DNA from: Parcubacteria group bacterium
GTDB lineage: Bacteria > Patescibacteriota > Minisyncoccia > Moranbacterales > UBA2206
Assembly (NCBI GenBank): GCA_041659505.1
Contig: JBAZYF010000001.1
Span: forward strand, 101,475 to 165,474
Direction: 5' to 3'
DNA: 64,000 nucleotides
Position 1 is the first letter of the stretch; each line of letters opens with the position of its first letter. Shown one piece after another: positions 3,147-39,924 of the stretch. The notes beneath the pieces are model-generated. The model was not told the origin of the DNA. It did not search any database and saw only the letters and a list, made by a program, of their open reading frames with translations. A program made the translations under genes and the position numbers.

Positions 3147-3159
3147 TAGAAATTTTAAA

Positions 3160-4911: not shown

Positions 4912-4938
4912 TTTAAATTTAGAATTTAGACTTTAAAA

Positions 4939-6438: not shown

Positions 6439-6441
6439 TTT

Positions 6442-8046: not shown

Positions 8047-8062
8047 ATTAAAAAATTTTAAA

Positions 8063-9937: not shown

Positions 9938-9945
9938 ATTGAAAA

Positions 9946-11538: not shown

Positions 11539-11548
11539 TTTTTTATTC

Positions 11549-12730: not shown

Positions 12731-12767
12731 AGATTTTTACATTAATAATTACTAAACTATATATATA

Positions 12768-12796
12768 ATATTACATTTAGTATCAATATTTGTCAA
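12768..12796 (-). promoter_or_regulatory. Sigma70-like promoter for the embedded ATPase. On the minus strand the -35 is TTGACA (12796-12791), the spacer is 17 nt, and the -10 is TAATAT (12773-12768).
   Basis: Hexamers were read on the reverse strand. The -10 lies ~38 nt upstream of the ATG at 12730. A 13 bp palindrome TGCTACTGTAGCA sits adjacent at 12797-12809. Confidence 0.45.
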
Positions 12797-12827
12797 CTGC
12801 TACTGTAGCATGGCTATTTTAAGCCTT

Positions 12828-14480: not shown

Positions 14481-14507
14481 TTCAAATTAAAAATTTTAAA
14501 TTTCAAA

Positions 14508-16424
14508 TTATTCCACTGCCAGTCCACCAGGCACACTGGGTGGAACCGTGTCCGCTCCTTGCAATTCATAGGCTCCAATATCATAGGCTCCGCCTTGGGG
14601 ACGCAAGAATGGCGAAGCCAGTCCGGCGCTGTTGATGGAGCTGTTAAATGGACTGCCGAGAGTCGCTCCAGTATCAATGGTTGGTCCTGTGGTGGTGGCG
14701 AAATAATTAGTGTTGGGTAGCAGATTGATGCCGTAGGTGCCGGTGAAACCGGTGGGAAGGGTGCCGACGGTGAACTCAGGGTCGGTGTTTTGGGCGGTTG
14801 GTTCCCAGGTAGCGACGGCTGAACGATTAAAATTAGTCATCGTCCCCTTTACTCCAGTCACAATATTAATATCCGTATAGGGTATTGAAGTTTTTGCAAC
14901 TCTCAGCTGATTTTCCGTCACCGCATCAACCATAAACACAATATTATTAAGTGCCGGCGTGGTAAAGCCAGACCATTTAAAAAAGTTATAATGTGTAAAA
15001 ATAGTTGTCCAGTCCGTACCGCCTGATTTGGTAAAATATGTATATGTTGCATCGTTAGAAACAGTTACTTCCGTCTCTGGAATAACCTCCGCGTAGCTCA
15101 TATTAGAAATGGCAGCCCCAGTCGATCCTGATGCTCTGTAAATAAGATTATTGGAGTGAGCTGTAATTTTAGTAAGATGATCATAAACTCCAATAGCATT
15201 ATTACTATAAATAATATTATTTTTAAAATTAACTATAGGGTAGTTCGCCATAGCGTTAGAGTATTGGAAAAAAGACACAATCCCATAACTTGTGGCTGAT
15301 ACGGTATTGTAAATAGTGTTGTTATAAATATCAAACGTACTTGCTTCGTATTCGCCATTACTAACTTCCAAATCGATGCCGGCATTATTGTAAAATATGT
15401 TGCTATAAATATTAGCATTAAGTGAGTGCACCAGGCCTATCTGCGTAGAAAAACCACTTCCCGTATTTTCATAAATCAGATTATTTCTAATTATCAAATT
15501 ATCTGGTGATCCGGCCGCAGCTTCCGGCGATGTCCGCTCCCAGATTCCCGTCATGCCATTATCACGGATACTATTAAATTCAACAGTGACATTATCTGCA
15601 TTGTTAGCGACAAGCACTCCTACTCCGCCATTGCCATATGTGCCGTTAGCATTGGTATAGGTCGGCCTAGTACCGCAATCATGAACATTATTTCCCCGCA
15701 CTGACACACCATCAACTCTCGGGTTCGTTCTTACCCATGCTGTGTAAATAGCAACACCTTCATGATAGGTATAGGCAACTTCATTATTGATTATATTAAA
15801 ATTAGTATGTGTGATATTATCATCGCCACCAGCAGCATAAAGTCCATATTGCCAGTTAGGTTGCCAAGTTTCATTAAGAATATTAGGATCAGTAATGCTG
15901 TGATTACCTCCGACAAGATTCGGATTGCCTGTGTGATGAATATAACAGTCCTTAACTGTAATATTGTCGATGGCCTTTCCGGCTCCATATCCAACATAAA
16001 GGCCACCACCGGTCCCCATTGAACTACCATCTACCTCAAATCCCTTGAAAACCACATCACTTTCATTGATAACGACTAAGCGATGCGTGTCCGCCTCAAG
16101 GCCAGTTATACCCTTTAATTCTGCCTTGACGCCAGCGGATGGCCACTCATTTCCAATATAAGAAACCCCTCTCTCGGCAGTCAAAAATGGGGCCGTTGAA
16201 AATTCCCAAATATCGCCGGAATTAAAATACACCATGTCCCCGCTAGTGACTGTCAATTGAACTTTGGCAATCGTCTCCCAAGCGCTGGCATCATCCAATC
16301 CAGAAAGACTATCATTGCCTCCGTTTTTGACGTAGTAAGTCGCAGCCTCTGAATTTCTTGCCATTCCAAAGATTCCGCAAAACAAAATTAGAAAGACGAA
16401 AATTTTTAATTTAGTTATTTTCAT
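14508..16424 (-). CDS. Secreted beta-helix protein, array paralog P8 (638 aa), with the same insert domain as P5.
   Basis: MKITKLKIFVFLILFCGIFGMARNSEA then ATYYVKNGGNDSLSGLDDASAWETI. The last ~80 nt are near-identical to P1 (...RPQGGAYDIGAYELQGADTVPPSVPGGLAVE). Confidence 0.85.
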   Translation of the reverse strand: MKITKLKIFVFLILFCGIFGMARNSEAATYYVKNGGNDSLSGLDDASAWETIAKVQLTVTSGDMVYFNSGDIWEFSTAPFLTAERGVSYIGNEWPSAGVKAELKGITGLEADTHRLVVINESDVVFKGFEVDGSSMGTGGGLYVGYGAGKAIDNITVKDCYIHHTGNPNLVGGNHSITDPNILNETWQPNWQYGLYAAGGDDNITHTNFNIINNEVAYTYHEGVAIYTAWVRTNPRVDGVSVRGNNVHDCGTRPTYTNANGTYGNGGVGVLVANNADNVTVEFNSIRDNGMTGIWERTSPEAAAGSPDNLIIRNNLIYENTGSGFSTQIGLVHSLNANIYSNIFYNNAGIDLEVSNGEYEASTFDIYNNTIYNTVSATSYGIVSFFQYSNAMANYPIVNFKNNIIYSNNAIGVYDHLTKITAHSNNLIYRASGSTGAAISNMSYAEVIPETEVTVSNDATYTYFTKSGGTDWTTIFTHYNFFKWSGFTTPALNNIVFMVDAVTENQLRVAKTSIPYTDINIVTGVKGTMTNFNRSAVATWEPTAQNTDPEFTVGTLPTGFTGTYGINLLPNTNYFATTTGPTIDTGATLGSPFNSSINSAGLASPFLRPQGGAYDIGAYELQGADTVPPSVPGGLAVE

Positions 16425-19640: not shown

Positions 19641-22448
19641 CTAAAGGTATTTCCCCGTCCAACTTTTTTTGCATTTTTTCAGTTCCGCTGGTGAGCCTTC
19701 AAACACAATTTCTCCTCCGCCCGATCCGCCTTCCGGACCCAGATCGATCACCCAATCAGAATTGCGGATCACATCCACATTATGTTCAACGACTAAAACT
19801 GTATTACCTTTGTCGACCAGTGCGTCCAAAACACCCAGGAGTTTGCGGATATCTTCAAAGTGCAGTCCAATCGTTGGTTCATCTAAGATGTACAAAGTTT
19901 TTCCCGTTGCTCGACGTGCCAGCTCCGTGGCCAATTTGATCCGCTGCGCCTCACCACCAGAAAGATCAACGGCGCTTTGTCCTAATTTTAAATAACCCAA
20001 GCCGACTTTTTCCAGCGTGGATAATTTATCTGTCACTAGTTTGGAGTTTTTGAAAAACGCCAGAGCATAGCTCACGCTCATATCAAGTACTTGCGCAATA
20101 TTCACTCCGCGGTATTCAATCTCAAGAGTCCGCTGATTATACTTCGCGCCATTACACGTTTCACACGGCACATAGACATCCGGCAAGAGGTGCATCTCGA
20201 TTTTTTTCTTGCCCTCACCTTGGCAATCCTCACAACGTCCGCCCTTCATATTGAAACTGAAACGGCTAGCATCATACCCACGCGTCTGTGCCTCCTCTGT
20301 TTCGGCAAACAGCTCACGGATGAGCGAAAAAACTCCGGTGTAAGTTGCGGCGTTCGAGCGCGGGGTGCGACCGATCGGTGCTTGATTGATACTGATCACC
20401 TTGTCGATGTTTTCCATTCCGCTAATTTTTTTGTGCTGTCCAGGAGCTTCTTTGGTATTGAAAAAATGTTTAGCCAAAGCTTTGGACAAAATGTCTGAAA
20501 CTAAAGTTGATTTGCCCGAACCGGAAACGCCGGTAAGCGAAATAAATTTTCCCAAAGGTAAGCTCACATCAATATCTTTCAAATTATGCTCTGTCGCTCC
20601 CTGAATCTTGATAAATTTGCCCGAACCCTTGCGCGCTTTTTTCTTATCCCCGACCTGTCTTTTTCCGTTCAGGTACTGCGCGGTCACGGTTTTAGATTTG
20701 AGCAGCGTCGCGAGGTCACCAGAAAAAATCACCTCGCCACCTTCTTCGCCAGCCCCTGGCCCCATATCAATAATCCAATCTGCTGCCCGAATGATCTGTT
20801 CGTCGTGCTCCACGGTAATCAAAGAATTACCCGCTTCACGCAATTCTTCCATCGTCGCAATTAATTTTTCCGTATCACGATTATGCAATCCGATCGATGG
20901 TTCGTCTAAGACATAGGTGATGCCGGAGAGTTCTGAGCCAATCTGCGTCGCCAAGCGAATCCGCTGTCCTTCTCCGCCAGAAATCGAATTAGCCGAGCGC
21001 GAAAGTGAGAGATAACCCAATCCCACATTTTGGAGTGCGGCACTGCGCGCTTTCATTTCCTTGACCAATGGTAAAATAATATTTTTCTTCGCTGAGCTGA
21101 TGTTGATTTTTTCCAGCGCTTCCAAGAATTGCGAAAAATCAACCAGTGGCATATCCACAACCTGATCAATTGATTTGTCCGCCACGAGCACTGAAAGATA
21201 CTCCCCGCGCAGACGCTTGCCCAAACAAAGCGGGCAAACTTTCTCAATCATATATTTTTCAATCTCGCTTCTCAGATAGTTGGAATTCAGTTCTTCATAT
21301 TTCTTTTTCATCGTCGGGATGACGCCTTCGAAAATGATCTTCGGGTCATTGGATCCATAGAGCACGATATTCAAATGTTCCCGACTGATTTTTTTCACCG
21401 GAATATCGACAGAAAATCCATATTTCTCTCCCAGCATTTGCAAAATGTTATTCCCGCTCGTCAGCACGCTTGAGCGTCCGCCGGATTTGTTCCACGACAA
21501 AATCGCACCTTCAGCCAGTGTGAGATTTTTATTAGGAATGAGCAAATCTTCATCGATTTCCTTAATCACACCCAATCCTGAACAATGTTGGCAGGCGCCC
21601 TCGGGACTATTGAAAGAAAAATGTTTCGGTGTAATGTCCGCCACTTCAAAAAAACATTTCTTGCAGACAAAATCACGGTTATAAATTTTTTCTGTCTCAT
21701 TATCTTTAACAACCACGGCAGCACCTTTGCCCAATTTAAAAGCCGTTTCAATCGAATCTAAGATCCGTTCTCGATCAGGATTTTTCTTATTAAGCACGAT
21801 GCGATCAATTACAATTTCTGCGCTACACGTTTCGTCTGCTTCCAATTCGTTCTGCGACAGTGCCTCGGTCAGCGACACGATTTTTCCTCGAAATCGAATC
21901 CGCGCATAACCCAATTGACTGACACTTTTGAGCCGCTCTTTCAAGCTCTGATCTTTACCATTCAGCTTAGCGAGAATTGCAATATTAGTCTTTTCCGGCG
22001 AATCAAGAATGTCCTCCAATACTTCGGCATTAGAAATTTTTTCCAACGGCGTCTTGCAGTGCGGACAATGCGGCGCTCCGGCCTTAGCATAAAGCACACG
22101 CAGATAATCATAGATCTCTGTGAGCGTCCCCACCGTCGAACGCGGACTGCGCGCGATACTTTTTTGATCGATCGAGATAGTTGGCGTCAGATTTTCAATC
22201 TTGTCCACATCCGGTTTAGCCGACACATCCAGAAACTGTGTCGCATAACTCGACATGCCCTCGAGATAGCGCCGATTGCCTTCCGCATAAATCGCATCAA
22301 ACGCCAAAGAAGATTTTCCACTGCCAGAGAGTCCGGTAATGACCACCAGCTTATCCCGCGGAATTTCCACATCAATATTTTTCAAATTATTCACCCGCGC
22401 TCCGCGGACAATGATTTTGCTCCGATCTTTGGGTTTGTTTTTTGACAT
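19641..22448 (-). CDS. uvrA: Excinuclease ABC subunit A (UvrA), canonical length.
   Basis: 935 aa. Two ABC ATPase modules ([20 protein letters not shown]), zinc-finger Cys pairs, and the C-terminal LSGGE signature. Confidence 0.95.
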
Positions 22449-26082: not shown

Positions 26083-26143
26083 AATCAGTGAAATCACTTT
26101 AATCAGTGAAAATCAGTGGTTCTGATGTTTAGTGGTTCAGGCA
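26083..26143. repeat. CACTGATT-rich repeat (family 6) immediately 3' of uvrA2. It contains AATCAGTGGTTCTGAT.
   Basis: AAAATCAGTGAAATCACTTTAATCAGTGAAAATCAGTGGTTCTGATGTTTAGTGGTTCAGG. A related element with terminal inverted repeats is at 39925-40026. Confidence 0.6.
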
Positions 26144-29100
26144 TTCTTTCAGATATTTCCCCGTCCAACTCTCTTTATCCCACTTCGCCACTTCTTCCGG
26201 TGTGCCGGAAACAATCACTTTGCCGCCTTCTTTCCCGCCTTCCGGACCCAGATCAATGATCCAATCGGCGGTTTTTATCACATCTAAATTGTGCTCGATT
26301 ACAATCACGGTGTTGCCCGCATCCACCAGACGATTAAGAATGCCCAACAATTTTTTGATATCATCGAAATGCAAGCCAGTCGTCGGTTCGTCGAGAATGT
26401 AAAGCGTGTCGCCTGTTGCACGACGAGAAAGTTCCGTGGAAAGTTTGATCCGTTGGGCTTCTCCGCCGGAGAGCGTCGTGGCTGATTGGCCGAGTTGAAT
26501 GTAGCCCAAGCCGACATCTTCCAAAACTTTGAGCTTGTCGGCGATATCATGAAAATTAGCAAAAAATTCGCGCGCTTCGGAGATAGTCAAGGCCAGCACA
26601 TCCGCAATATTTTTGTCACGGTATTTCACTTTCAGCGTTTCACTATTGTAGCGTTTTCCACCGCAAACATCGCAAGGCAGATAAACATCCGGCATAAATT
26701 GCATTTCGATCTTATTATATCCATCCCCCTGGCAATTATCACAGCGTCCGCCTTTGACATTGAAAGAAAAGCGTCCCGGCGAATAGCCTTTCGCTTTGGC
26801 GTCGCGCGTTTCGGCAAACAGTTCGCGAATGGCCGTGAATAGTCCCGTGTAGGTCGCGGGATTGGACCGTGGCGTGCGACCGATCGGCGATTGATCAATC
26901 ATAATTACTTTGTTGAGATAATGATCGCCGACAATTTCACTGTGCTTGCCTGGCCGTTCCAGAGAACGCATAATTTTGGCTGAAAGCGCTTTGTAGAGAA
27001 TATCTTCCACCAGCGTTGATTTTCCCGAACCGGACACTCCGGTCACGCAGGTCAAAACTTTGAGCGGAAACGACACAGTAATATTTTGCAAATTATGTTC
27101 GCGCGCTCCCCGCACCACGAGCGTTTTTTTGCTTTTGAGCGATCGACGATATGCCGGGGCTTCAATCGAAAGATCTCCCCGTAAATATTTGGCCGTCAGT
27201 GATTCTTCACTTTTCATCACTTCTAGAGGCGTTCCTTCGGCGACAATTTCTCCGCCGTGTTTTCCCGCGCCTGGCCCGATGTCCACGAGGTAGTCCGCGG
27301 CGCGCATCGTTTCTTCATCGTGCTCCACCACAATCAAGGTATTACCCACATCGCGCAGTTGCAAAAGCGTCGCAAGCAGTTTGGCGTTGTCCCGCGCATG
27401 CAGACCAATTGATGGCTCATCAAGGATATACAGCACGCCAACGAGCTGGGAGCCGATCTGTGAGGCTAGGCGGATGCGTTGTGATTCTCCACCGGCTAAA
27501 GTGTTAGCGGCGCGACCGAGCGAAAGATAGCCAAGGCCGACGTCTTGCAAAAATCCCAAGCGATTTTGAATTTCTTTCAAGATCCGGCTAGCGATCAACT
27601 CTTCACGTTTGGTGAAATTTATTTTTTGAAAAAAATCCAACGTTTCCCGCACACTGATGGTGGAAACTTCATGGATGTTTTTCCCGCCTGCAACGCTATG
27701 CTCTTCAGAACTAGTACTTTCCTTTATTTTTTTACTATAACCGTCAGAATTCTCCGTTCCACTTAACAGCGTAGCATTGCGGGCAGGATCGCCCACAGTC
27801 ACAAGTAAAGCTTCTTTTTTATAGCGCGAACCGAGACAAGTCGAACAGGGATTTTGGGACATATATTTCTCAATGTCTGTGCGCACGCCTTCCGAATCAG
27901 TCTTGAGATAGCGATCCTGCAAATAGCCCACCACTCCCCGCCAGTGCATATTATATTTCCAACTTGATCCGGTCTTGCTTCTCAAGGTCACAGGAATTTC
28001 ATCCCCGCCCGCATCGCTACGCGAAGCGTTGCGGGCGGGAGCGCCTTCCTCTAACGTTATATCCGTTATATCTGAAGTGCCATAGAGCAGGGTATTAAAA
28101 TCATCATCGGAAAGGTCGCGCAAACGCACATTATCCCGAATGTCATAAAAATTCGTCACTGCGCGCAAAATTGTTCCCTGCCAATTGTTTTTCTTATAAC
28201 TCCACGGCATAATTCCGCCTTCCGCGATCGTTTTGTTCATATCCGGCACAACCAGATCAGGATCAATCTCTTTTTTCACGCCCAACCCTTCACAGGATGG
28301 ACAAGCACCAAACGGACTATTGAAAGAAAACAGGCGCGGTTCCAATTCCGGAAAATCCACCTCATGCACCGGACAAGAAAAATTCTGATTGAAAATCATT
28401 TCGCCATCAAAACTAGGACCAGAGCTAAGCTCTCGGCTCCGAGAGCTTAGCTCTGGTTTCTCTAGTTTTTCGGATTTAAGTCCTCTTATGGTTTTTTTTG
28501 CTGTTTTATTTTTCCCATCTCCTGTCATCAATTTTATTTTCACAATTCCCTTAGACAATTTCAAGGCTTGTTCCACACCTTCAAAGATCCGCGAAATATT
28601 CTCGGAATTTATTTCTACCTTATCAACTAAGATATCAATATTGTGTTTTTTATAACGTTCTAATTTCACCCGTGTGCCGATCTTTTCATCCAGCGCATAT
28701 TTTTTTCCGTTGACAAAGGCGGTGGAGAAACCGCGCCGAAACATCTCCTCGAGAAGTGTCGAGTATTCCCCTTTGCGTTCCCGCACGATAGGAGAAAAAA
28801 TTTCAATCGCACAATCATCTTTTTTTGATTTTTTATCCTTACCTGTCGTGCAAATATTCAAAATCCGATCCACAATTTCATCTGTGGACAGTTTCACGAT
28901 TTCTCGGTTGCAAATCGGACAATGCGCCACACCGATTTTGGCATAAAGCAGACGCAGATAGTCGTGAATTTCCGTCACCGTTCCCACGGTTGAACGTGGA
29001 TTGTGTGAAGCGGCTTTTTGGTCAATCGAAATCGCGGGACTAAGCCCCTCGATTGAATCGACTTCCGGCTTTCCCATCTGACCCAAAAACTGGCGGGCAT

Positions 29101-29281
29101 AGCTCGACAGACTTTCCAGATATCGCCGTTGTCCCTCGGCAAAAATGGTATCAAAAGCCAGCGTACTCTTGCCTGAGCCGGAAATTCCGGTGAAAACAAT
29201 AAATTTATTCCGCGGTAGATCGAGATTGATATTCTTGAGATTGTGCTCTCTCGCTCCGCGAATGATTAATTCGTCTTGCAT
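26129..29281 (-). CDS. uvrA: UvrA paralog (UvrA2), 1050 aa. It is a complete two-module UvrA with several G+C-rich insertions.
   Basis: [65 protein letters not shown]... plus a second module [11 protein letters not shown] and the LSGGEAQR signature. It is ~110 aa longer than the copy at 19641-22448 because of three insert segments. Confidence 0.9.
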   Translation of the reverse strand: MQDELIIRGAREHNLKNINLDLPRNKFIVFTGISGSGKSTLAFDTIFAEGQRRYLESLSSYARQFLGQMGKPEVDSIEGLSPAISIDQKAASHNPRSTVGTVTEIHDYLRLLYAKIGVAHCPICNREIVKLSTDEIVDRILNICTTGKDKKSKKDDCAIEIFSPIVRERKGEYSTLLEEMFRRGFSTAFVNGKKYALDEKIGTRVKLERYKKHNIDILVDKVEINSENISRIFEGVEQALKLSKGIVKIKLMTGDGKNKTAKKTIRGLKSEKLEKPELSSRSRELSSGPSFDGEMIFNQNFSCPVHEVDFPELEPRLFSFNSPFGACPSCEGLGVKKEIDPDLVVPDMNKTIAEGGIMPWSYKKNNWQGTILRAVTNFYDIRDNVRLRDLSDDDFNTLLYGTSDITDITLEEGAPARNASRSDAGGDEIPVTLRSKTGSSWKYNMHWRGVVGYLQDRYLKTDSEGVRTDIEKYMSQNPCSTCLGSRYKKEALLVTVGDPARNATLLSGTENSDGYSKKIKESTSSEEHSVAGGKNIHEVSTISVRETLDFFQKINFTKREELIASRILKEIQNRLGFLQDVGLGYLSLGRAANTLAGGESQRIRLASQIGSQLVGVLYILDEPSIGLHARDNAKLLATLLQLRDVGNTLIVVEHDEETMRAADYLVDIGPGAGKHGGEIVAEGTPLEVMKSEESLTAKYLRGDLSIEAPAYRRSLKSKKTLVVRGAREHNLQNITVSFPLKVLTCVTGVSGSGKSTLVEDILYKALSAKIMRSLERPGKHSEIVGDHYLNKVIMIDQSPIGRTPRSNPATYTGLFTAIRELFAETRDAKAKGYSPGRFSFNVKGGRCDNCQGDGYNKIEMQFMPDVYLPCDVCGGKRYNSETLKVKYRDKNIADVLALTISEAREFFANFHDIADKLKVLEDVGLGYIQLGQSATTLSGGEAQRIKLSTELSRRATGDTLYILDEPTTGLHFDDIKKLLGILNRLVDAGNTVIVIEHNLDVIKTADWIIDLGPEGGKEGGKVIVSGTPEEVAKWDKESWTGKYLKECLNH
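28419..28456. repeat. Perfect 38 bp palindrome CCAGAGCTAAGCTCTCGG|CTCCGAGAGCTTAGCTCTGG, inserted in frame in uvrA2.
   Basis: Read directly. It encodes KPELSSRSRELSSGP within a uvrA2-specific insert. Related GC-rich palindromes (CCCGCCCGC...GCGGGCGGG at ~28004-28046 and ~27770-27800) lie in two further inserts, both of which encode PARNA motifs. Confidence 0.7.
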
Positions 29282-29335
29282 AATATATAAAAAGTGTGAT
29301 GTGTTTAAATTTAGTATACTCTAGTTTACAGCTCT

Positions 29336-29354
29336 TTGAGTTTTCCTGCAAGCG
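29336..29354. repeat. 19 bp direct repeat TTTGAGTTTTCCTGCAAGC (copy 1). It is followed by two hairpins at 29374-29425.
   Basis: An identical 19-mer recurs at 30285-30303. The pair brackets the single gene 29411-30157. Confidence 0.7.
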
Positions 29355-29410
29355 AACTGTCCCTAAAATATTACGAGCCGGTACAAATGAGTTTGCACCG
29401 GCTCGCTTCC

Positions 29411-30157
29411 CTATTTAGGGATGTTGAAAGCTGTTTTTTTGAAAACCAGTCCGAAGAGCTGGCCACCACGCAAGGCTCGCTTGCTTATTTTTGCCTGATC
29501 AACAGAAAGAATCTCACTGAGATATCCCTCCCCATCGTCCCGTGGCAATACCACGCTTAGAATCTGAATAATCCAGAAATTTCCATCGGCATCTTGCAAT
29601 AAAGAGTTGTTAATATCGCAGACCCGACTTAAAGATATCGTGGTTAAATCAGCGACATAACAATAGTTGTAGATCGCCGAGGAATCCTGTGGCAAAAGGT
29701 CTTGATCCAAAATCCCTAGCTGAAGAAATTCCGATTTTTTGACTTGCCCGAATGCAAATAAATAACAGGCCGGACTAGTGATCACACCTCTCAGCGAGAA
29801 ACTGACCGGTTTGTCCTTATAAAGGGCATATATCCCTCTCGGCAGGACATTAGAATCGTGCAGTGCCCAGGCATAAGACCCATTGGCATATTTGAAATGG
29901 CATAATGTTCCTAGTCCTTCATTAAATACTAGCTCCATTTCAGAAGGGACGGTAAAAAATGACCATCCGCTAGACTGATAAAACGGGGACTCCAAAAAGA
30001 CCTGGTTCAGAATTGACATCGTTTCAACCACTATCCTTTTCTGATGGATTATTTCCTTTCCATTAAAAAAGTACAGAGCTCTCTGCTCACTTGCAAATGC
30101 TAACAAAGAACTTGATAACAAAACAATCATTACCATTAAACACAACCCTCTTTTCAT
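29411..30157 (-). CDS. Secreted hypothetical protein (248 aa) with an N-terminal signal peptide.
   Basis: MKRGLCLMVMIVLLSSSLLAFASEQ... No recognisable domain. It is flanked by the 19 bp direct repeats. Confidence 0.55.
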   Translation of the reverse strand: MKRGLCLMVMIVLLSSSLLAFASEQRALYFFNGKEIIHQKRIVVETMSILNQVFLESPFYQSSGWSFFTVPSEMELVFNEGLGTLCHFKYANGSYAWALHDSNVLPRGIYALYKDKPVSFSLRGVITSPACYLFAFGQVKKSEFLQLGILDQDLLPQDSSAIYNYCYVADLTTISLSRVCDINNSLLQDADGNFWIIQILSVVLPRDDGEGYLSEILSVDQAKISKRALRGGQLFGLVFKKTAFNIPK

Positions 30158-30284
30158 AAGACACCTCCTTGTGTGGTTTGTTGAAAAAATAATTGGTTAT
30201 CCTTATGTTTACACCAAAGAACAGCTTAGTCAAATAGCTCCTCAGTATAGGCTAAGATTTGAAACACTACATGGCTTGAAACTT

Positions 30285-30303
30285 TTTGAGTTTTCCTGCA
30301 AGC
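30285..30303. repeat. 19 bp direct repeat TTTGAGTTTTCCTGCAAGC (copy 2).
   Basis: Exact match to 29336-29354. Confidence 0.7.
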
Positions 30304-30389
30304 CAAAATCTTAGAAAAAAATTCAAGCCAGCTTTTAATAGAACAAAGCTGGCTTTTTTAGGCAGAGACATTGCACTGCACTTCTGGAG

Positions 30390-30575
30390 TTAATAGAAAA
30401 TGGCCATATCCCCTGGCTTGAGAGAAATGCCTTTTTCCACTCCCTTATTAAGATCGAATGAGGCAGATCCAAGTTCAACCATCTCCGAGTTTGCAATTGA
30501 GGCTGGATCATACATATACACTTTCTCGATGAACTCACCGAGAGTTCTTGAGTCTACAACTGGAAATTCTGGCAT
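30390..30575 (-). CDS. Small hypothetical protein (61 aa) with a strong Shine-Dalgarno (AAGGAGGaatcatATG).
   Basis: MPEFPVVDSRTLGEFIEKVYMYDPASIANSEMVELGSASFDLNKGVEKGISLKPGDMAIFY. The longer track ORF (to 30692) has no RBS and is rejected. The gene overlaps the upstream gene's 3' end by 36 nt. Confidence 0.5.
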   Translation of the reverse strand: MPEFPVVDSRTLGEFIEKVYMYDPASIANSEMVELGSASFDLNKGVEKGISLKPGDMAIFY

Positions 30576-30609
30576 ATGATTCCTCCTTTTAAAAAAGATT
30601 AAAAAAAAA

Positions 30610-31188
30610 TTAAGCAACGAACACTCTTCTGTAGCAGGCACGATCATTCTTACGAATTGGATCATGAAGCCCAATGCGCATCTGGCCATCACAAATCAAT
30701 GAGGTTACCCACCCTATACCAGGAATGCTGTCATCATTGAAACGTGACCCAGCGCAAAAAGCGATACGATTATGATCCAGTTGAAGTCCAGTTTCGTCGA
30801 AAAATTTGAGCGCATGGATCATTCCCTCAGTCAACGTTGCAGTCAAAACTCCAACCATTGAGACTTCCTTGGGAGACAATCCTCCCAAATCATCATCCGG
30901 CTCATCTCGCATAAGAATTGCATATGATCCGTTTTGCGCATGTCGATCGCTTTTCGCGACAAGTCGGTCTAGTTTTTTTTGCTCTGGAAGCCATAGATTG
31001 AATAGCTTTACAAATTTGTCGCGGAGTTGCTCGAAAGGAACATCTGCCATGACTATGTGTCTATAGCCGACTTTACTCTCAGGCATTTTAACATTAGAAA
31101 AATCACAATACATGTCAAAATGCCTCTTGTAAAAAGACTGTAAATCTTTGATGGCTTCCATGCAAGATTTTTCTGGTAATATTGGCAT
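30610..31188 (-). CDS. Hypothetical protein (193 aa) with a strong Shine-Dalgarno (AAGGAGGagactggtcATG).
   Basis: MPILPEKSCMEAIKDLQSFYKRHFDMYCDF... I recognise no family. It lies immediately downstream of the LexA-like repressor on the same strand. Confidence 0.5.
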   Translation of the reverse strand: MPILPEKSCMEAIKDLQSFYKRHFDMYCDFSNVKMPESKVGYRHIVMADVPFEQLRDKFVKLFNLWLPEQKKLDRLVAKSDRHAQNGSYAILMRDEPDDDLGGLSPKEVSMVGVLTATLTEGMIHALKFFDETGLQLDHNRIAFCAGSRFNDDSIPGIGWVTSLICDGQMRIGLHDPIRKNDRACYRRVFVA

Positions 31189-31303
31189 GACCAGTCTCCT
31201 CCTTACGTTCAAAAATGTTAAAGAGCCAAACTCTCCGTTAAATATAGCTACCGCTATAATAAACCAATTTATTACAATAAACCAGCGTTGTCAACCCCAA
31301 AAC

Positions 31304-31963
31304 CTAAAGGCTCACATATTTCACCGGCAAAACTTTTCGGAAAATGCCGGCAAAAATGAAGGAGTCGGATTTGTGGATAAAGATCGGCTGGTGGATCGGG
31401 TTGGTCGATTTGGGAAAAAGGCCGATCACGTCTTCACTGACTTTTTTGTAGCGTTTGATGGTGGCCATGCCGTTCACCACTGCCACGACAATCTTACCTT
31501 CCAATTCTTCCTGGTGTTCATATTTCTCAAAAATGACGTAGTCGCCATCGTTGATTTTTTCCTTGTCCATCGAATCGCCCAAGGCCTTCACGGCAAAAAG
31601 CAAAGACTCATCTTTGTCACGAAAAAGCGCTTTGGAAATTTGCAAAAAGCCGTCGACATTGTCCTGCGCATAAGCCAGCGCTTCTCCGCAAGATGCCAAG
31701 CCATAGACCGGCACAGAGAAAATATTTTTAAAATTAGTATAATTCTTGTTTTCCACCAGATAGATTTTCTTGTTCTTATCACGCTTGATTAGATCCTTTT
31801 TTTCGAGTGATTCAATCACTTGCATTACCGATTTCAAACTATCCTTCACACCTTGCGACTCCAAAAATTTTTGCAACCGATAGCTGGTGGGATTAGCTTT
31901 CCCCTGGTCGATCAGCTCTCGGATCGATTCCAGGATGTTTTGTTGTTTGGCTGTTAGGATCAT
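31304..31963 (-). CDS. lexA: LexA-like repressor (N-terminal wHTH plus S24 peptidase domain with Ser/Lys dyad).
   Basis: 219 aa. The N-terminus MILTAKQQNILESIRELIDQG is wHTH-like. It has the self-cleavage region VYGLASCGEA, the catalytic GDSM, and the Lys in ATIKRYKK. This matches the LexA/CI/UmuD S24 family. Confidence 0.75.
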   Translation of the reverse strand: MILTAKQQNILESIRELIDQGKANPTSYRLQKFLESQGVKDSLKSVMQVIESLEKKDLIKRDKNKKIYLVENKNYTNFKNIFSVPVYGLASCGEALAYAQDNVDGFLQISKALFRDKDESLLFAVKALGDSMDKEKINDGDYVIFEKYEHQEELEGKIVVAVVNGMATIKRYKKVSEDVIGLFPKSTNPIHQPIFIHKSDSFIFAGIFRKVLPVKYVSL

Positions 31964-32029
31964 AGTTTTATTTTGGTTTTTACGCGTCTAAATTTTAGTA
32001 AACACGTAAATCCTCTTTTTTTAATAATT

Positions 32030-32064
32030 ACAGTGTTATTTTAACATTGATAGTCTAACACTGT
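32030..32064. promoter_or_regulatory. Candidate operator upstream of the lexA-like gene: ACAGTGTTA-N17-TAACACTGT, with an inner 13 bp palindrome TGTTATTTTAACA (32034-32046).
   Basis: The inverted repeats were read directly. They lie 70-100 nt upstream of the repressor start at 31963. Assignment as an operator is inference. Confidence 0.3.
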
Positions 32065-32084
32065 CAAGTGCCCCTATTTACACT

Positions 32085-32112
32085 AAAAAAGCCCCGAATA
32101 ATCGGGGCTTTT
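32085..32112 (-). terminator. Rho-independent terminator (GCCCCG-AATAAT-CGGGGC plus a T run on the minus strand) after the DsbA-like gene.
   Basis: AAAAAAGCCCCGAATAATCGGGGCTTTT. The A run on + equals a T run on the minus strand, downstream of the stop at 32134. Confidence 0.6.
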
Positions 32113-32133
32113 GGCACTAATAAATTCTCAGGC

Positions 32134-33210
32134 TTAATTTCCGCAAGCAGCACCAGAGGCACTAGCAGCGGCAGGAGCAGTGCCCTCACCAAATCCCGGT
32201 GCGGGAGCAGCAGAGGAAAGTGTTGTCGAACATTCTTTCGGTTCAGTCTTAAATCCAGAGCAAATAGTTTTCAAAAGACTTGTAGCATCTCTTCCAGCTG
32301 AAGCAGCCTCCACCCCGTTAATTACGAGTGTTGGAGAACCTTTCACGCCATATTTTTCATTATCCGCCTTGTTCACATTGAACGGCGGGTATGATCCTTG
32401 GTAAGTACTCTTATCCTCATAATTTTTCGTCACGTCAAATTGAGTATCCGCTTGCGTCATGCAGGTTTTCACTGTTGCCGCAGCGACACCGGCTGTTTGC
32501 ATACAACTATCCTCTGTACCTTGCCCAACCTTGAGAAAACAAGTCAGGTAAGCACTTAATTTTGCCGGCTGATTTTTTTGGATGCAATATTGTCTCAAAT
32601 TTTCATCCAATTCTTTTTTGTCATGCATCGCGTAGTTGACAAATTTCAGAGTATAGTTAATTTTTGTTCCAAGAGCAGTGAGTACTGGCAGGATGCCTTT
32701 TTCAATCTGTGTTCCATATGGGCAATAACTCATCACGAACAGTTCCACAACCGGCTTGTCAGTTTTAGGAATTTCTGCCACAGGCTTGGTTTCTCCCGGT
32801 GTTTGCTCAGCAGCCATTTTTTGCTCTGTTTCCGCGATATCCATCACGCTAGGAAAAAACTTTGATCCGTCAGTTGATAGATAGGAAGTAATTTCTTGCT
32901 TTTGCGCTCCTTCGCCGATTGAAACCATCACTTTAAACATTCCGTTTTCCTTGGCCACTGACGTGATGTCGGCTTTCGCTCCACCTTGCATCAAATTGTT
33001 GTTGATGAAATCTGCCACTTTTGCCTTCGCCTGGCTTTCCGTCAAATTGTGTTTACTCCAAACTAGCTTATAGTAACCATAACCACCAAGCGCAACAACC
33101 AAAAGGATGATTGCAATAATCTTGGGCAAATGTTTTTTATATTTCTCGCAACCGCAAGTCCCCTTCTCGCAGCAGTCCGCATCCATGGACTCTTTCTTTT
33201 CTTCTTCCAT
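32134..33210 (-). CDS. Membrane-anchored thioredoxin-fold thiol-disulfide oxidoreductase (DsbA-like, CPYG active site).
   Basis: A TM segment IIAIILLVVALGGYGYY, then ...VMSYCPYGTQ... and a C-terminal Cys-rich region. Confidence 0.6.
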   Translation of the reverse strand: MEEEKKESMDADCCEKGTCGCEKYKKHLPKIIAIILLVVALGGYGYYKLVWSKHNLTESQAKAKVADFINNNLMQGGAKADITSVAKENGMFKVMVSIGEGAQKQEITSYLSTDGSKFFPSVMDIAETEQKMAAEQTPGETKPVAEIPKTDKPVVELFVMSYCPYGTQIEKGILPVLTALGTKINYTLKFVNYAMHDKKELDENLRQYCIQKNQPAKLSAYLTCFLKVGQGTEDSCMQTAGVAAATVKTCMTQADTQFDVTKNYEDKSTYQGSYPPFNVNKADNEKYGVKGSPTLVINGVEAASAGRDATSLLKTICSGFKTEPKECSTTLSSAAPAPGFGEGTAPAAASASGAACGN

Positions 33211-33357
33211 AATTTATTTTGAATTATTTATTAGATTACCGGTGATTGCCGATACTTTTGCTATTATAACCAATCAGCGAATTTCGTGCAAGCGCTCATT
33301 TTTAGCATCCGCATCCAAAATTTTATCCAGATCTTTGATAAATTAATTACTCCACGC

Positions 33358-33861
33358 CTAAGGCAACAGCGACTCAATATATTTTTTCATATTCGATACA
33401 AACTCTTCCGGTCGCTCTTGTGCATGTTTTCTCAATTCTTCTGGCGAAATCCAAGCCACCGCCTCAACTTCATCTTCTTGCAACACAAATTCATCGGCTT
33501 TTTTATCAATAGTCAGCATAAACCATTGAGTGAAATGGTAGCTCCCGTCAATTTTTGTTTTTGGTCCAAGTTCTGGTTTAATATTTTTTAGTCCCAATTC
33601 TTCTTCGGCTTCTTTGATTATATTATCCAAATAAGTTTCCCCTTTCTCGACTGTTCCCGCAACCGCAGGTCCCCACATCCCTGGATGATGCGCCTTAGAA
33701 TGATGCCGCTTCGCCAAAAGAATTTCACCACGAGAATTAGTTATCCATAAAGCCGAGACGCGATAAATGTTTTTCTTTTTGAAAGCGCCTCTCTCTTCAT
33801 GCCCAATAATTTCATCATTTTCATCAACGATGATTATTTTTTGTTTGGCTGGTTCGGTCAT
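33358..33861 (-). CDS. NUDIX hydrolase.
   Basis: NUDIX box GTVEKGETYLDNIIKEAEEELGL (Gx5Ex7REUxEExGU). Confidence 0.8.
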   Translation of the reverse strand: MTEPAKQKIIIVDENDEIIGHEERGAFKKKNIYRVSALWITNSRGEILLAKRHHSKAHHPGMWGPAVAGTVEKGETYLDNIIKEAEEELGLKNIKPELGPKTKIDGSYHFTQWFMLTIDKKADEFVLQEDEVEAVAWISPEELRKHAQERPEEFVSNMKKYIESLLP

Positions 33862-33884: not shown

Positions 33885-35126
33885 CTAAATTTTTCTGAAA
33901 CAATCAATTATTTCAATCTTTTCTATTTTTTTCAGTTGTCCAATTGTAACAACATAGCCAACGAGAAGTTTATTCTTTTCCACAAAACGCTTGACTGCAG
34001 AGATATCCTTTGCGCTGGTGTTTTTTTTGAATTTAATCTCTATTGGGATAAGCGCGGGAGCCGCGTCAAGCAAGATATCAATTTCTTCCCCACTTTTTGT
34101 GCGATAATATTTAATCGTTTCTGGATCCACTCCTTTTTTAATCAGCTCGGAAACATAAAATCCTTCAAAGAGAAATCCCGCGTCAGAACGCGCGTCAACT
34201 GAAGAAAAATTTCCCAAAAAATAATTTCGCACGCCATTATCAAGAAAATAAATTTTGGGCATTTTAGAAATTTCCTTGTTTTTGTTGGTAAAATATGGAC
34301 GCAGAATTGAAATAATATATGTCTCTTGCAAAATAGCCAAATAATTTTGCACGGTTTCTGTGCTTATCTCCGCTGCCGCTCCATACTTGGCATAGTTCGC
34401 CGTCTGCCCATGATTGATGGCTAAAATTTTCATGAGCTGACTGGCATTTCTTAACTTTTCCATTCTGACATATTCGGCAAAATCCTTTTTAATATAGAGA
34501 TCAAAAATGGAACGCAGTGCCTCTTTTTTTTCTTCAATAGTTTTGGACAAAACGACATCCGGATATCCACCAAAGACTAAAAATTCTTCCAGCAAAGCAT
34601 AGGCTTCGCGCATTGGAGAGAAGTAGTCTCCCGTTTGTACTTTTGGGAGTTGGTTTATTTTTGCAATAAGCTCAGACCTATCCTTAAAGTACAAAAATTC
34701 CTCAAAACTCAGTGGATAGACATGGGTGATTATTTTTCGTCCTGCCAAACTTTCTTGAATTGAATTTTTTATTTCCAATGATGATGATCCGGTAGCATAT
34801 ATTTTAATATTACTGTGGTGATCGTGGACGGATTTTATCACTCGCGATAAATCAACGTAACGTTGGAATTCATCCAAAAAAACATAGAAGAAATTTTTCT
34901 GTTTTTCCTCATAACCGTTTGTCTTGAAAGTGGCGATAGCTTTTTCGTAGGTCGCTACTTGCTCATAATCTGAAAAAATATCCACATCAAAAAAAATTCC
35001 TCCCAACTGTCGGTGCAGTTCTTTCAGAATTGTCGTTTTCCCCACTTGCCGGGGTCCAATGATAATTGAAGCCTTTTGGGAATTCTGTTGACCCAATATT
35101 TTACTGAAAACAAGCCTTTTTTTCAT
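33885..35126 (-). CDS. AAA+ superfamily ATPase (COG1373/DUF4143 type), second paralog.
   Basis: Walker A GPRQVGKTT, Walker B FLDEFQ, and YATGSSS. The start is taken at MKKRLVFSK. The ORF is open to 35204. Confidence 0.75.
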   Translation of the reverse strand: MKKRLVFSKILGQQNSQKASIIIGPRQVGKTTILKELHRQLGGIFFDVDIFSDYEQVATYEKAIATFKTNGYEEKQKNFFYVFLDEFQRYVDLSRVIKSVHDHHSNIKIYATGSSSLEIKNSIQESLAGRKIITHVYPLSFEEFLYFKDRSELIAKINQLPKVQTGDYFSPMREAYALLEEFLVFGGYPDVVLSKTIEEKKEALRSIFDLYIKKDFAEYVRMEKLRNASQLMKILAINHGQTANYAKYGAAAEISTETVQNYLAILQETYIISILRPYFTNKNKEISKMPKIYFLDNGVRNYFLGNFSSVDARSDAGFLFEGFYVSELIKKGVDPETIKYYRTKSGEEIDILLDAAPALIPIEIKFKKNTSAKDISAVKRFVEKNKLLVGYVVTIGQLKKIEKIEIIDCFRKI

Positions 35127-35190
35127 ATTTTTTACTAAAATAAGGTTATACCTGCTTTTAGTATATACTTTTATCTGGCATACGTCAAGT

Positions 35191-35607
35191 TTAGTATAAA
35201 TCATCTTCCGTCAAAACTTCAATGCCATTTTTCTTGAGCAGTTTTGTCATCACTCCGTCACCCTCAATCATAACGCCGGAAAAAGTGCCGTCATAAATTT
35301 TTCCACATCCACAGGATGGACTTTTTTGCTTCAAAATGGCAGTTGTAATTCCTCTGGCTTTAGCAATCTTCAAAACCTGCTCGGCACCGATTTTGAAATT
35401 AGCCGTCACATCAACCCCGCTTTTTGTGAAAACCCGATCGCCTCTTATCTCAGTTTGCTCCCGCGGAGTCAAAAGCCCCCTCAACTGCTCAGGACAAACC
35501 GGAACCAAAGTTTCTTTTTTAGCCAAAGCCAAAACTTTTTCATTGGCCTTATCACTGCCATCGTAACGACATTTTATACCCAAAAGGCATGCGCTGCAAA
35601 GTTTCAT
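35191..35607 (-). CDS. DUF523 family protein (TudS-like, Cys-rich).
   Basis: MKLCSACLLGIKCRYDG...VPVCPEQLGG...KSPSCGCG is the DUF523 pattern. Confidence 0.65.
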   Translation of the reverse strand: MKLCSACLLGIKCRYDGSDKANEKVLALAKKETLVPVCPEQLRGLLTPREQTEIRGDRVFTKSGVDVTANFKIGAEQVLKIAKARGITTAILKQKSPSCGCGKIYDGTFSGVMIEGDGVMTKLLKKNGIEVLTEDDLY

Positions 35608-36815: not shown

Positions 36816-38876
<2,061 letters not shown>

Positions 38877-38963
38877 AATGATTATATCTTGATAATATCA
38901 GACATTCTTTAAAATTTGAATTATTCGGACTGCAATCACCATTCACTCAAAAAGGAGGACCAG

Positions 38964-39380
38964 ATGAATACTAATACTAGATTTACTATTTCAGGTGCCA
39001 TTATAATGACAATAGTACTGGGACTTTTGCTGCTAGCTCATAGATTAGATGAAAGGGGGGTGGTTTCTGCTGGTATTACCAGCGCCGCTATACAGGAAAT
39101 ACGGCCTATCAGCACAACCCGTGACCCACAAAACATCAACCCAGAAAATGATTTTATTGGATTCGAGATTATCTTCACCAGTGAAATCCAATGCGGAAAA
39201 TTCAAAACCAATGTGGTAAGATTTTCCGCAGATCATTCAACTGGGTCTGGGCTTAGACAGATATTTATTATTGCTGGAAACCCCCAGCATAAATATGAAC
39301 TCCAGGATTTTACCATTCGCACCAAAGATGGTGGTAAAAGTTTTTATGTGATAACTTCGGTTATCGCAATCCTGAAATAA
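38964..39380 (+). CDS. Hypothetical membrane-anchored protein (138 aa), Shine-Dalgarno AAAAAGGAGGaccagATG.
   Basis: MNTNTRFTISGAIIMTIVLGLLLLAH... The upstream in-frame extension to 38916 lacks an RBS. Confidence 0.5.
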   Translation: MNTNTRFTISGAIIMTIVLGLLLLAHRLDERGVVSAGITSAAIQEIRPISTTRDPQNINPENDFIGFEIIFTSEIQCGKFKTNVVRFSADHSTGSGLRQIFIIAGNPQHKYELQDFTIRTKDGGKSFYVITSVIAILK

Positions 39381-39418
39381 TTCAATTCCATCTTCTTTCC
39401 AAGCGAACTCACTCGCAC

Positions 39419-39461
39419 CTGCCATATTTCCAAGAAACATCGGGAATATGGCAGTTTTTTT
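39419..39461 (+). terminator. Rho-independent terminator CTGCCATATTTCC-N-GGAATATGGCAG followed by TTTTTTT.
   Basis: Read directly, 40 nt after the stop at 39380. Confidence 0.7.
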
Positions 39462-39558
39462 ATTTTAAATTGTCTTGAACTGTGATTTTTGTGATTATTT
39501 GATGGACTATGATTTCTTAATCAAAATCCCAATCATAGTTTTCATTCAATCAGACGAA

Positions 39559-39861
39559 TCATAGTTCGAGATTAAGATAACAAGCGTAGCGATCAAGTTT
39601 CCAATCCCGCACCTGCCTTACAGTATTTGAACCTATTTCGACCATTTTAACCAACTGGTTAAAATGGTTATCCGTGTCCTGAACGCTATTAATGCAAGCC
39701 TTTATAGCCCTACTGATAACTTCCTGGGCTTTTTGCCAATTTGGATAACCCAAGAGAGGCATCAGCTCCCGCGCTTCCCAAAATTCGACACCATTTTCAT
39801 CGATCTTTTTAATGTTCTCAAAGTCCTTGTGGACTCCCAATGCAACTTCCATTTTTGTCAT
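39559..39861 (-). CDS. DinD-family (DNA-damage-inducible protein D) N-terminal domain protein, only 100 aa.
   Basis: ...GVEFWEARELMPLLGY...VEIGSNTVRQVRDWKLDRYACYLNL closely parallels the N-terminal domain of E. coli DinD (…GAEQWSARQLGKLLGY…VKIGSNAKRALKDIVLSRYACYL…). It lacks the C-terminal two-thirds. Confidence 0.6.
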   Translation of the reverse strand: MTKMEVALGVHKDFENIKKIDENGVEFWEARELMPLLGYPNWQKAQEVISRAIKACINSVQDTDNHFNQLVKMVEIGSNTVRQVRDWKLDRYACYLNLEL

Positions 39862-39924
39862 AGTTTTAGTGTTAGTTTTATTATAATGATATTATAACAC
39901 TAAAGCAAAACTACTGTCAATTGT

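Follow-up and report, generated by a model that had tools for sequence, protein, structure and literature searches.

A LexA-type repressor gene under tandem operator-like dyads, followed by a variable gene slot, in a probable chromosomal SOS switch of a Moraniibacteriota bacterium

What does an S24-type repressor control when its gene is followed, on the same strand, by two small genes of no obvious family? This question is raised by a 64,000-nucleotide stretch of contig JBAZYF010000001.1 from a Parcubacteria group bacterium, which we call the window. The repressor gene lies there upstream of two open reading frames encoding 192 and 61 amino acids (ORF192 and ORF61). A reading made from the letters alone (the sequence-only reading) had likened the three genes to SOS-induced modules such as prophage remnants, ImmR/ImmA-like switches and damage-induced toxins, with a bona fide LexA as the fallback. 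We compared the locus with 18 loci from a scan of one genome per GTDB species, which gives n=19 promoters with the window; L-numbers (e.g. L011) denote the relatives' loci used for comparison. The locus is most probably the chromosomal SOS switch of a Candidatus Moraniibacteriota (Patescibacteria, or candidate phyla radiation, CPR) bacterium, and the two cargo genes would be passengers in it. All features of the locus lie on the minus strand, from the terminator at 32087-32112 through the hairpin at 30325-30355, and their coordinates are collected in Table 1.

The repressor itself resembles LexA over its whole length. The 219-residue product gives an S24 peptidase match (PF00717 Peptidase_S24, E=2e-18), as the earlier reading had recognized, together with a weak LexA_DNA_bind match. 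Residues 3-207 align with residues 4-191 of E. coli LexA (PDB 1JHH/3JSO; TIGR00498 / COG1974), which has apparently the same two-domain architecture and the same Ser/Lys dyad, and residues 3-65 are in register with E. coli LexA and with TIGR00498 from position 4 onward. In this alignment, Cys92-Gly93 corresponds to A84-G85 of E. coli LexA, Ser131 to S119 and Lys170 to K156. The predicted cleavage site is Cys92-Gly93 and the predicted catalytic residues are Ser131 and Lys170. This predicted site is not the Ala-Gly of E. coli LexA but Cys-Gly, which is the cleavage site of UmuD. The 18 orthologues show 65-98% identity and are titled Candidatus Moraniibacteriota, Moranbacteria, Parcubacteria or Patescibacteria, and the ratio of nonsynonymous to synonymous substitution rates (dN/dS) of lexA is ~0.02 against L011. 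The lexA gene of the window (A-rich leader ...AAAATAAAACT-ATG, 31964-31980) and its orthologues have no Shine-Dalgarno (SD) sequence.

The genomic setting is also fixed. The gene order uvrB ... 358-aa protein - lexA - uvrA - uvrC - second uvrA was found wherever the contigs are long enough. This bears directly on the headline of the sequence-only reading, by which the repressor would belong, as a CI- or ImmR-like switch, to a degraded prophage or integrative element with ORF192-ORF61 as cargo or toxin genes. Such an origin has a very slight chance of being right. The repressor does match phrog_4, 'transcriptional repressor' (E=1e-19), which reflects the common S24 domain, and the cargo is strain-specific. 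However, the N-terminus appears to be of the LexA type and not XRE/HTH_3, no ImmA/M78 protease, integrase or phage structural gene lies within ~10 kb, and the 65-98% identity with fixed uvr synteny in 18 genomes differs from the patchy distribution of CI and ImmR-ImmA switches. ORF192 and ORF61 have no match in 50,697 phage genomes, LexA and ORF192 have no relatives in IMG/VR, there are no PADLOC matches, and the base composition is the same as that of the neighbouring genes. Without relatives among phages or viruses, with neither ImmA nor integrase in the vicinity, and with two genes that occur separately, the prophage/CI-ImmR reading is effectively refuted.

To place the operator, we turn to the lexA promoter (PlexA). 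It is close to consensus and composed of TTGACA at 32067-62, an 18-nt spacer and a TG-extended -10 element, TAAAAT, at 32043-38; the -35 element is TTGACA or TTGCAG in 19/19 orthologous loci. The earlier reading had described here an inverted repeat, ACAGTGTTA-N17-TAACACTGT, with an inner palindrome, TGTTATTTTAACA. Both are present, at 32030-32064 and 32034-32046, and the repeat occurs once in the 64 kb, against 0 expected from 100 shuffles. The repeat is real, but a second dyad, TGATAGTCTAACA at 32048-60, and the overlap with the promoter had been overlooked. A better description of the inverted repeat is a tandem pair of TGWTA-N3-TAWCA dyads. Written in the direction of the gene, the promoter is TTGACAG-TGTTAGACTATCA-A-TGTTAAAATAACA-CTGT. 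It contains two dyads of 13 bp each with centres 14 bp apart, which overlap the -35/-10 region and would, on this sequence evidence, form an operator in the promoter of lexA itself. Box 2 is exact in 16 of the 19 orthologous promoters, has one mismatch in three and is degenerate in none; for box 1 the counts are ten exact, four with one mismatch and five degenerate. The arms of box 1 are kept while its spacer drifts (GAC/ATG/GTC/GGC/GTG/GCA/GCG/AAC...), a pattern that would be expected where a dimeric protein binds the dyad, but not from the spacer of a promoter.

The flanks of the promoter are also structured. The upstream terminator folds at -19.6 kcal/mol (z=-4.8) and would shield PlexA from upstream transcription. 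Placing the transcription start from the -10 position gives a leader of 68 nt. A hairpin is always present in this leader; its sequence differs between genomes, some of which have palindromic inserts. In L009, L011 and L014, an insertion of ~110 nt lies between the operator and the ATG, bounded by the inverted repeat CATCCCCCACCACTTTT...AAAAGTGGTGGGGGAT, and looks like a miniature inverted-repeat transposable element.

If the dyad is the binding site of LexA, it should be found at other promoters as well. The window contains three exact TGWTA-N3-TAWCA sequences against 0.34 expected, and the third covers the TG-extended -10 of a strong dinD-like promoter (TTGACA 39920-15, 18-nt spacer, TATAAT 39896-91). 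E. coli DinD (NF008573) is an SOS-induced Bro-N protein, and the 97-aa gene of the window matches its N-terminus: the match to NF008573, 'DNA damage-inducible protein D', covers profile positions 9-95 of 288. Unlike E. coli DinD, the window gene is cut down to the Bro-N domain, with an unrelated 720-bp segment in place of the rest, whereas in relatives the full-length gene abuts uvrB. In L032, dinD encodes 271 aa and abuts uvrB, and the boxed promoter drives such a full-length dinD in both L032 and L057. In this genome, the boxed dinD promoter may no longer reach uvrB. The 720-bp segment (window 38853-39572) replaces 519 bp that complete dinD in the 98%-identical L032, and contains an antisense 154-aa ORF (38916-39380) with no family match.

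The same picture is obtained when the relatives are included. The 253 kb of lexA loci contain 28 exact boxes against 2.4 expected. Promoters of lexA account for 26 of them; the other two are the box at the dinD-like promoter of the window and one in L025, which overlies the -10 of a promoter ~130 nt before recA. When metagenomes were scanned with the DinD fragment, 80 loci were returned, and in seven of these an exact box is placed at -35 to -41 relative to the dinD ATG, with otherwise different promoter sequence around it. These seven are among the 11 exact boxes in the 333 kb of dinD loci. Had the repeat occurred nowhere else, with another box at the SOS genes, a LexA operator would have been contradicted; instead, the dyad was found at dinD and recA promoters. 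The TGWTA-N3-TAWCA dyad is thus, as judged from these placements, very likely the SOS box of this lineage, and its presence over the -10 of dinD(-uvrB) and recA would define a small SOS regulon. The fallback of the sequence-only reading is the one that is borne out: the full-length alignment with E. coli LexA including the catalytic residues, the fixed uvr synteny in 18 genomes, the conserved operator and the dyad at dinD and recA together argue for a bona fide LexA.

Other sequences around these promoters were also noted. A twin-box, lexA-like promoter precedes an ORF of ~85-100 aa of the DUF3276 (Pur-alpha-like) family directly upstream of dinD (L050:1005-1400, L095:2500-2900); this ORF is a candidate SOS gene in related Patescibacteria, presumably binding single-stranded DNA or RNA. 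In more distant relatives, a DnaA-box-like aGTTATCCACAG stands 8-10 nt upstream of the -35 at boxed SOS promoters (lexA, recA, dinD, DUF3276), with sites in L020-L025 (about 5790-5925 / 3385), L025:9681, L046:2908, L050:1023 and L095:2517. It is also found before a few other genes and is absent from PlexA of the window, and many further TTATCCACA matches are codons for VDNHF inside dinD. Just upstream of uvrB, at 38881-38900, the window has a perfect TGATA-T-TATCA palindrome, in which a single nucleotide separates the half-sites of the LexA box; the relatives examined do not share this palindrome. TATAAT comes next, ~10 nt before the uvrB ATG (38870), and the uvrB mRNA may be nearly leaderless. 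Boxes with one mismatch number 12 in the window against 8.8 expected, which is chance level, and one near ychF (50362) was inspected and dismissed.

Several points weigh against a LexA switch of this kind. First, the function of the lexA locus is read from sequence throughout. The PF01726 LexA_DNA_bind match (E=2e-3) scores 18.3 bits against a gathering score of 23.7, and the full-length match to the lexA equivalog TIGR00498 scores 88.2 bits against a cut-off of 110.95. The curated cut-offs are all that the protein misses, as is expected for a CPR protein, and the sub-cut-off but full-length TIGR00498 score reads as that of a divergent CPR orthologue. Second, recA of this genome lies outside the window, and the promoters of uvrA, uvrC and the second uvrA have no LexA box. 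The exact boxes outside lexA promoters (two in 253 kb) are at chance level in number, so only their placement at promoters of SOS genes is informative. Third, box 2 and the dinD box share the left half TGTTA, which falls on an extended -10 (TGnTAnAAT), and part of the conservation of these boxes is therefore promoter conservation. Lastly, a weak 7-bp hairpin with a U-rich tract before ORF192 could attenuate read-through from lexA.

The third point leads to another explanation, in which the conserved dyads are only promoter elements, or the operator of another regulator, and LexA recognizes a different motif. Besides the overlap of the TGTTA half-site with the extended -10 consensus, PMC7739468 cites Sanchez-Osuna et al. 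2017 among papers reporting direct-repeat LexA motifs. We regard this explanation as improbable. Box 1 lies in the -35/-10 spacer, which is normally unconstrained, and keeps both arms while the 3-nt spacer drifts. The right arm, TAWCA(CTG), lies downstream of the -10 and is not a promoter element. Moreover, where the dyad recurs outside lexA, it does so specifically at the promoters of recA and dinD, each time in other surrounding sequence, and in this family the lexA promoter as a rule contains an autoregulatory operator (PMC8565304). Compared with the direct-repeat motifs mentioned in PMC7739468, the sites here are dyads, although both boxes together also read as a 14-bp direct repeat.

With the LexA assignment preferred, we propose a mechanism from the anatomy of the locus and the established biology of LexA. 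The lexA gene would be transcribed from a strong sigma-70-type promoter whose spacer and -10 are taken up by the two dyads. LexA dimers bound to the dyads would occlude RNA polymerase, resulting in negative autoregulation. Upon DNA damage, the promoter would be freed when LexA, stimulated by RecA, cleaves itself at Cys92-Gly93 with Ser131/Lys170.

This arrangement can be compared with that of known systems. E. coli LexA likewise has a palindromic operator over its own promoter, and the same dyad is found here at recA and dinD promoters. However, the box is TGWTA-N3-TAWCA (13 bp), not CTGT-N8-ACAG, and two boxes abut at a 14-bp period. In contrast to canonical LexA, the protein scores under the curated cut-offs, its gene lacks a Shine-Dalgarno sequence and the flanking uvrA and uvrC have no box. 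LexA boxes differ greatly from phylum to phylum, and short dyads with an N3 spacer are known elsewhere (PMC8565304); for example, the Bdellovibrio box TTAC-N3-GTAA (PMC8565304) is the same kind of short dyad with a 3-nt spacer, in an unrelated lineage and with a different half-site. Within the Patescibacteria, LexA has been validated for a Collierbacteria and a Parcubacteria genome (Sanchez-Osuna et al. 2017, according to Table S2 of PMC8565304). That work on the Patescibacteria SOS network (Sanchez-Osuna, Barbe & Erill 2017, Environ Microbiol 19:3465, PMID 28618189) is reported to describe, for the same superphylum, a similar small LexA regulon from comparative genomics, with LexA-binding motifs validated by EMSA.

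If the repressor is LexA, what are the two genes behind it? Between lexA and uvrA lies a slot with variable contents. In L010, L012 and L013, a terminator (AAAAAGCCAGCTTCG...GGTTGGCTTT) comes directly after lexA and precedes the uvrA promoter, and in L026 uvrA starts 13 nt after lexA; the slot is thus empty in these four close relatives. The terminator hairpin AAGCCAGCTT...GGCTT stands after lexA in the first three of these, and in L009 and L015 it stands behind the cargo. From this comparison, the terminator at 30325-30355 of the window is taken as orthologous to the one directly after lexA in the cargo-less relatives. The cargo lies demonstrably between the lexA stop and the lexA terminator in L009 and L015, and in the window ORF192 and ORF61 precede the terminator. 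A secondary promoter, P2, is located just past the lexA stop in the 115-nt lexA-ORF192 spacer and has no LexA box. Its counterpart, TTGACA-N17-TATGGT/TATGAT/TATTAT, is kept after lexA in the cargo-bearing L009, L014, L015 and L016, and P2 is absent where the slot is empty; L014 and L016 show the P2-plus-cargo arrangement only. In the window, an 18-bp tandem duplication displaces the ancestral -10 of P2, and the alignment to relatives shows a 9-column insertion.

Expression of the cargo would come from two sources. The lexA-ORF192 spacer has no significant RNA structure (z=0.07), and no Rfam family reaches threshold in 29000-33500. Since there is no strong terminator between lexA and ORF192, transcription from PlexA probably reads through into the cargo. 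ORF192 and ORF61 are probably expressed at a basal level from P2, with SOS-inducible read-through from PlexA in addition. Both genes have strong SD sites on the strand of lexA, as the sequence-only reading had it: AAGGAGGAG at 31196-31204, 7 nt before the ATG at 31188, for ORF192, and AAGGAGG at 30582-30588, 6 nt before the ATG at 30575, for ORF61. Other parts of its description had to be corrected. The larger protein has 192 aa and not 193, and the NCBI call for an identical protein also has 192. The two genes do not overlap but are separated by a 34-nt spacer (30576-30609), since an overlap needs an unsupported upstream GTG at 30692. They are also not a two-gene module, because they do not travel together and the slot contents vary between relatives. 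The two genes are independent, lineage-variable passengers in an insertion hot spot, and there is no conserved repressor-plus-effector module.

ORF61 is a real gene, because it has an orthologue in L011 (77% identical, without ORF192 there), a dN/dS of ~0.18, and an identical 61-aa protein annotated by NCBI. The dN/dS value indicates that it is under purifying selection. With a profile built from nine slot ORFs, only 11 proteins were found among 5.8 billion, and the source-named ones are from Moraniibacteriota/Parcubacteria; the family of ORF61 is narrow, fast-evolving and Moranbacteria-specific. Its link to the other slot ORFs consists of weak transitive pairwise scores, about 10-20 bits, and a common hydrophobic pattern, and a jackhmmer search from ORF61 did not recruit them. 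A ThiS/MoaD-like beta-grasp fold, suspected from the alignment pattern, was unsupported by the PDB profile search or by Pfam.

ORF192 is present at this position only in this genome, and none of the other 18 lexA loci has a relative of it. Neither ORF192 nor ORF61 has a match in Pfam, PHROGs, NCBIfam or PADLOC, so the earlier statement that they have no recognisable domains holds for curated libraries. It does not hold beyond them for ORF192. A word-indexed homology search returned only the protein itself, whereas relatives were recovered by an exhaustive HMMER search, 769 of them at E<=1e-3 and 227 at E<=1e-10. These are typically ~240 aa long, with a 50-60-aa N-terminal extension that is not in ORF192. 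Y89, E121 and C145 are invariant in the family, and R82, S105, D138 and G147-S148 nearly so. The AlphaFold2 model made with the family alignment (predicted local distance difference test, pLDDT, 92; predicted template-modelling score, pTM, 0.89) has a confidently predicted C-type-lectin/FGE-like fold; the single-sequence model has a pLDDT of 36. Foldseek with the model found nothing in the PDB or BFVD, a PDB profile search with the family found nothing, and neither ORF192 nor 44 relatives match FGE-sulfatase PF03781 in Pfam. ORF192 differs from FGE-sulfatase-type folds (pFGE 1Y4J, PvdO, EgtB C-domain, PorK, and TvpA/Mtd, which are variable proteins of diversity-generating retroelements, DGRs) in having no PF03781 or PDB-chain profile match, so that the resemblance is confined to the fold. 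It also differs from FGE-type and DGR proteins in being small, without a signal peptide and not DGR-linked, with its own conserved set of Y89, E121, C145 and G147-S148. Tentatively, ORF192 could be a cytoplasmic ligand-binding module, possibly thiol-dependent.

The lectin-like fold suggests one specific role, that of the variable protein of a DGR with the fold showing a hypervariable surface for binding. In L004/L005, 280 nt separate the homologue P0153 from a reverse transcriptase downstream of it, which has the DGR-type LGxxxSQ motif. However, neither a relaxed BLASTN nor an adenine-aware mismatch scan found a template repeat for the 3' end of ORF192 in the 64-kb window, and none was found for P0153 within +/-6 kb. 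No reverse transcriptase is among the annotated window genes, near-identical P0153 variants have no C-terminal hypervariability, and the Pfam FGE-sulfatase match is missing. The DGR role, tested in three ways, was rejected, and we consider it highly unlikely. The reverse transcriptase itself (L004/L005:7014-7790) has an LGNVTSQ motif and YCDD, adjoins the ORF192 homologue and is followed by a Trp-repressor-like helix-turn-helix protein (8055-8453); no template/variable repeat pair involving P0153 was found in L004/L005.

The neighbourhoods of the family were also compared. Relatives of ORF192 are solo genes near PolA, RecO, ClpB/PolX, a ribosomal-protein cluster, TatD, an RND pump or hypothetical genes, with no conserved neighbourhood across 11 loci (eight distinct contexts). 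An association with DNA repair (PolA, PolX, RecO) was not sustained in the 11 loci checked. No LexA box lies upstream of the relatives, and their leaders have hairpins but no conserved RNA motif.

These results bear on the alternative that the cargo is more than a passenger, in which ORF192 and/or ORF61, together with the related small slot proteins, act as genuine SOS effectors under LexA control through co-transcription with lexA, at a dedicated SOS cargo site and not a neutral hot spot. They might modulate cell division or RecA, or be damage-induced factors of host interaction. In other phyla, lexA often has small SOS effectors next to it (sulA, yneA, Rv2719c). In the window, L009 and L015, the cargo is inside the lexA transcription unit, before the conserved terminator, with no strong terminator after lexA. 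ORFs of 60-95 aa occupy this position in at least six genomes, sometimes in tandem and with weak transitive similarity, and ORF61 is under purifying selection. On the other hand, the slot is empty in L010, L012, L013 and L026, and holds NYN or 23S-rRNA-IVP genes in other relatives. The relatives of ORF192 elsewhere have no LexA link or upstream box, and P2, the cargo's own promoter, has no box. Lastly, there is no transmembrane segment and no similarity to known SOS effectors: no hydrophobic segment is visible in the ORF192 or ORF61 sequence, and Pfam, NCBIfam, PHROGs, PADLOC and the PDB gave no SulA-, YneA-, TisB-, SymE- or DinI-type similarity for either. An effector role is thus unlikely, though less so than the other alternatives. 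Somewhat more doubtful still is the stronger form, that the slot is a dedicated site of SOS read-through with a conserved promoter and leader, in which rapidly evolving small proteins and, here, a C-type-lectin-fold protein are exchanged as novel damage-induced effectors of ultra-small episymbiotic bacteria. If it were true, ORF192 would be the first functional handle on an unannotated family of >750 members, and the slot proteins would be, for example, modulators of the cell cycle, RecA or host interaction.

Table 1. Features of the lexA locus and of the third box in the window, and contents of the slot in relatives.
Feature	Position	Strand	Detail
Intrinsic terminator of upstream 358-aa gene	32087..32112	-	11-bp perfect stem AAAAGCCCCGA/TCGGGGCTTTT + U-run
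PlexA -35 TTGACA	32062..32067	-	promoter scan, 11/12 matches
9-nt-arm inverted repeat	32030..32064	.	outer half-sites of boxes 1 and 2 plus conserved CAG/CTG flanks
LexA box 1 (candidate)	32048..32060	.	TGATAGTCTAACA on + strand, TGTTAGACTATCA in gene orientation; between -35 and -10
LexA box 2 (candidate)	32034..32046	.	perfect dyad TGTTATTTTAACA; contains -10 TAAAAT (32038-32043, minus)
Predicted lexA 5' untranslated region, 12-bp hairpin	31964..32031	-	RNA fold -13.5 kcal/mol, z=-3.6
lexA, 219 aa, probable winged-helix DNA-binding domain + S24 autopeptidase	31304..31963	-	Pfam, NCBIfam, alignment, orthologues
Secondary promoter P2	31266..31294	-	TTGACA 31294-89, 17-nt spacer, TAAATT 31271-66; promoter scan 10/12
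18-bp tandem duplication inside P2	31255..31284	.	TGGTTTATTGTA / TGGTTTATTATA; repeat search
ORF192, 192 aa	30610..31188	-	SD AAGGAGGAG; at this position only in this genome
ORF61, 61 aa, small soluble protein	30390..30575	-	AAGGAGG SD; orthologue; NCBI annotation
Intrinsic terminator ending lexA-ORF192-ORF61 unit	30325..30355	-	11-bp perfect stem + U7, z=-2.7
248-aa protein, N-terminal signal-like hydrophobic segment	29411-30157		no family match; between lexA terminator and uvrA promoter
uvrA promoter	29323..29351	-	TTGCAG, 17-nt spacer, TAAACT; no LexA box
Third exact LexA box (candidate)	39887..39899	.	covers TG-extended -10 TATAAT of dinD-like promoter
Truncated dinD-like gene, 97 aa, Bro-N only	39559..39852	-	NF008573 E=8.6e-33, Pfam Bro-N
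Slot content, L009			two small ORFs
Slot content, L016			two small ORFs
Slot content, L015			one small ORF
Slot content, L014			one small ORF + secreted 270-aa protein
Slot content, L011			NYN-domain gene + several small ORFs
Slot content, L022, L023			23S-rRNA-IVP four-helix-bundle gene

Beyond the lexA unit, the gene of the 248-aa protein has its own terminator (29373-29406, 15-bp stem), and a homologue with 30% identity, the secreted 270-aa protein, is found at the same place in L014. The uvrA promoter is conserved in the window and in L009, L010, L012, L013, L014 and L015. The window encodes two UvrA paralogues, at 19641-22448 (935 aa) and 26129-29281 (1050 aa), which are ~46% identical; the 1050-aa protein has low-complexity insertions, and both genes have their own conserved promoters without a LexA box. 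Further away, at 1509-16424 on the minus strand, lies a tandem array of ~8 paralogues of 500-640 aa, several of which match PF13229, a right-handed beta-helix repeat. An AAA_14/DUF4143 ATPase (11549-12730) interrupts the array, and a second copy of this ATPase lies at 33885-35204.

In summary, the locus is an ordinary SOS system from a phylum that has been little studied. What stands out most is the cargo slot with its own promoter in the lexA unit and the large unannotated C-type-lectin/FGE-like family; neither would surprise a specialist, and no long-standing question is opened by them. The value of the comparison is in annotation: the identity of LexA is settled for a Moranbacteria genome, and the false lead of a prophage or toxin module at this place is removed. 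For this CPR clade, it yields a testable SOS box, TGWTA-N3-TAWCA, which is in tandem at lexA, and a predicted regulon that would take in dinD(-uvrB) and recA, but not the lexA-adjacent uvrA and uvrC.

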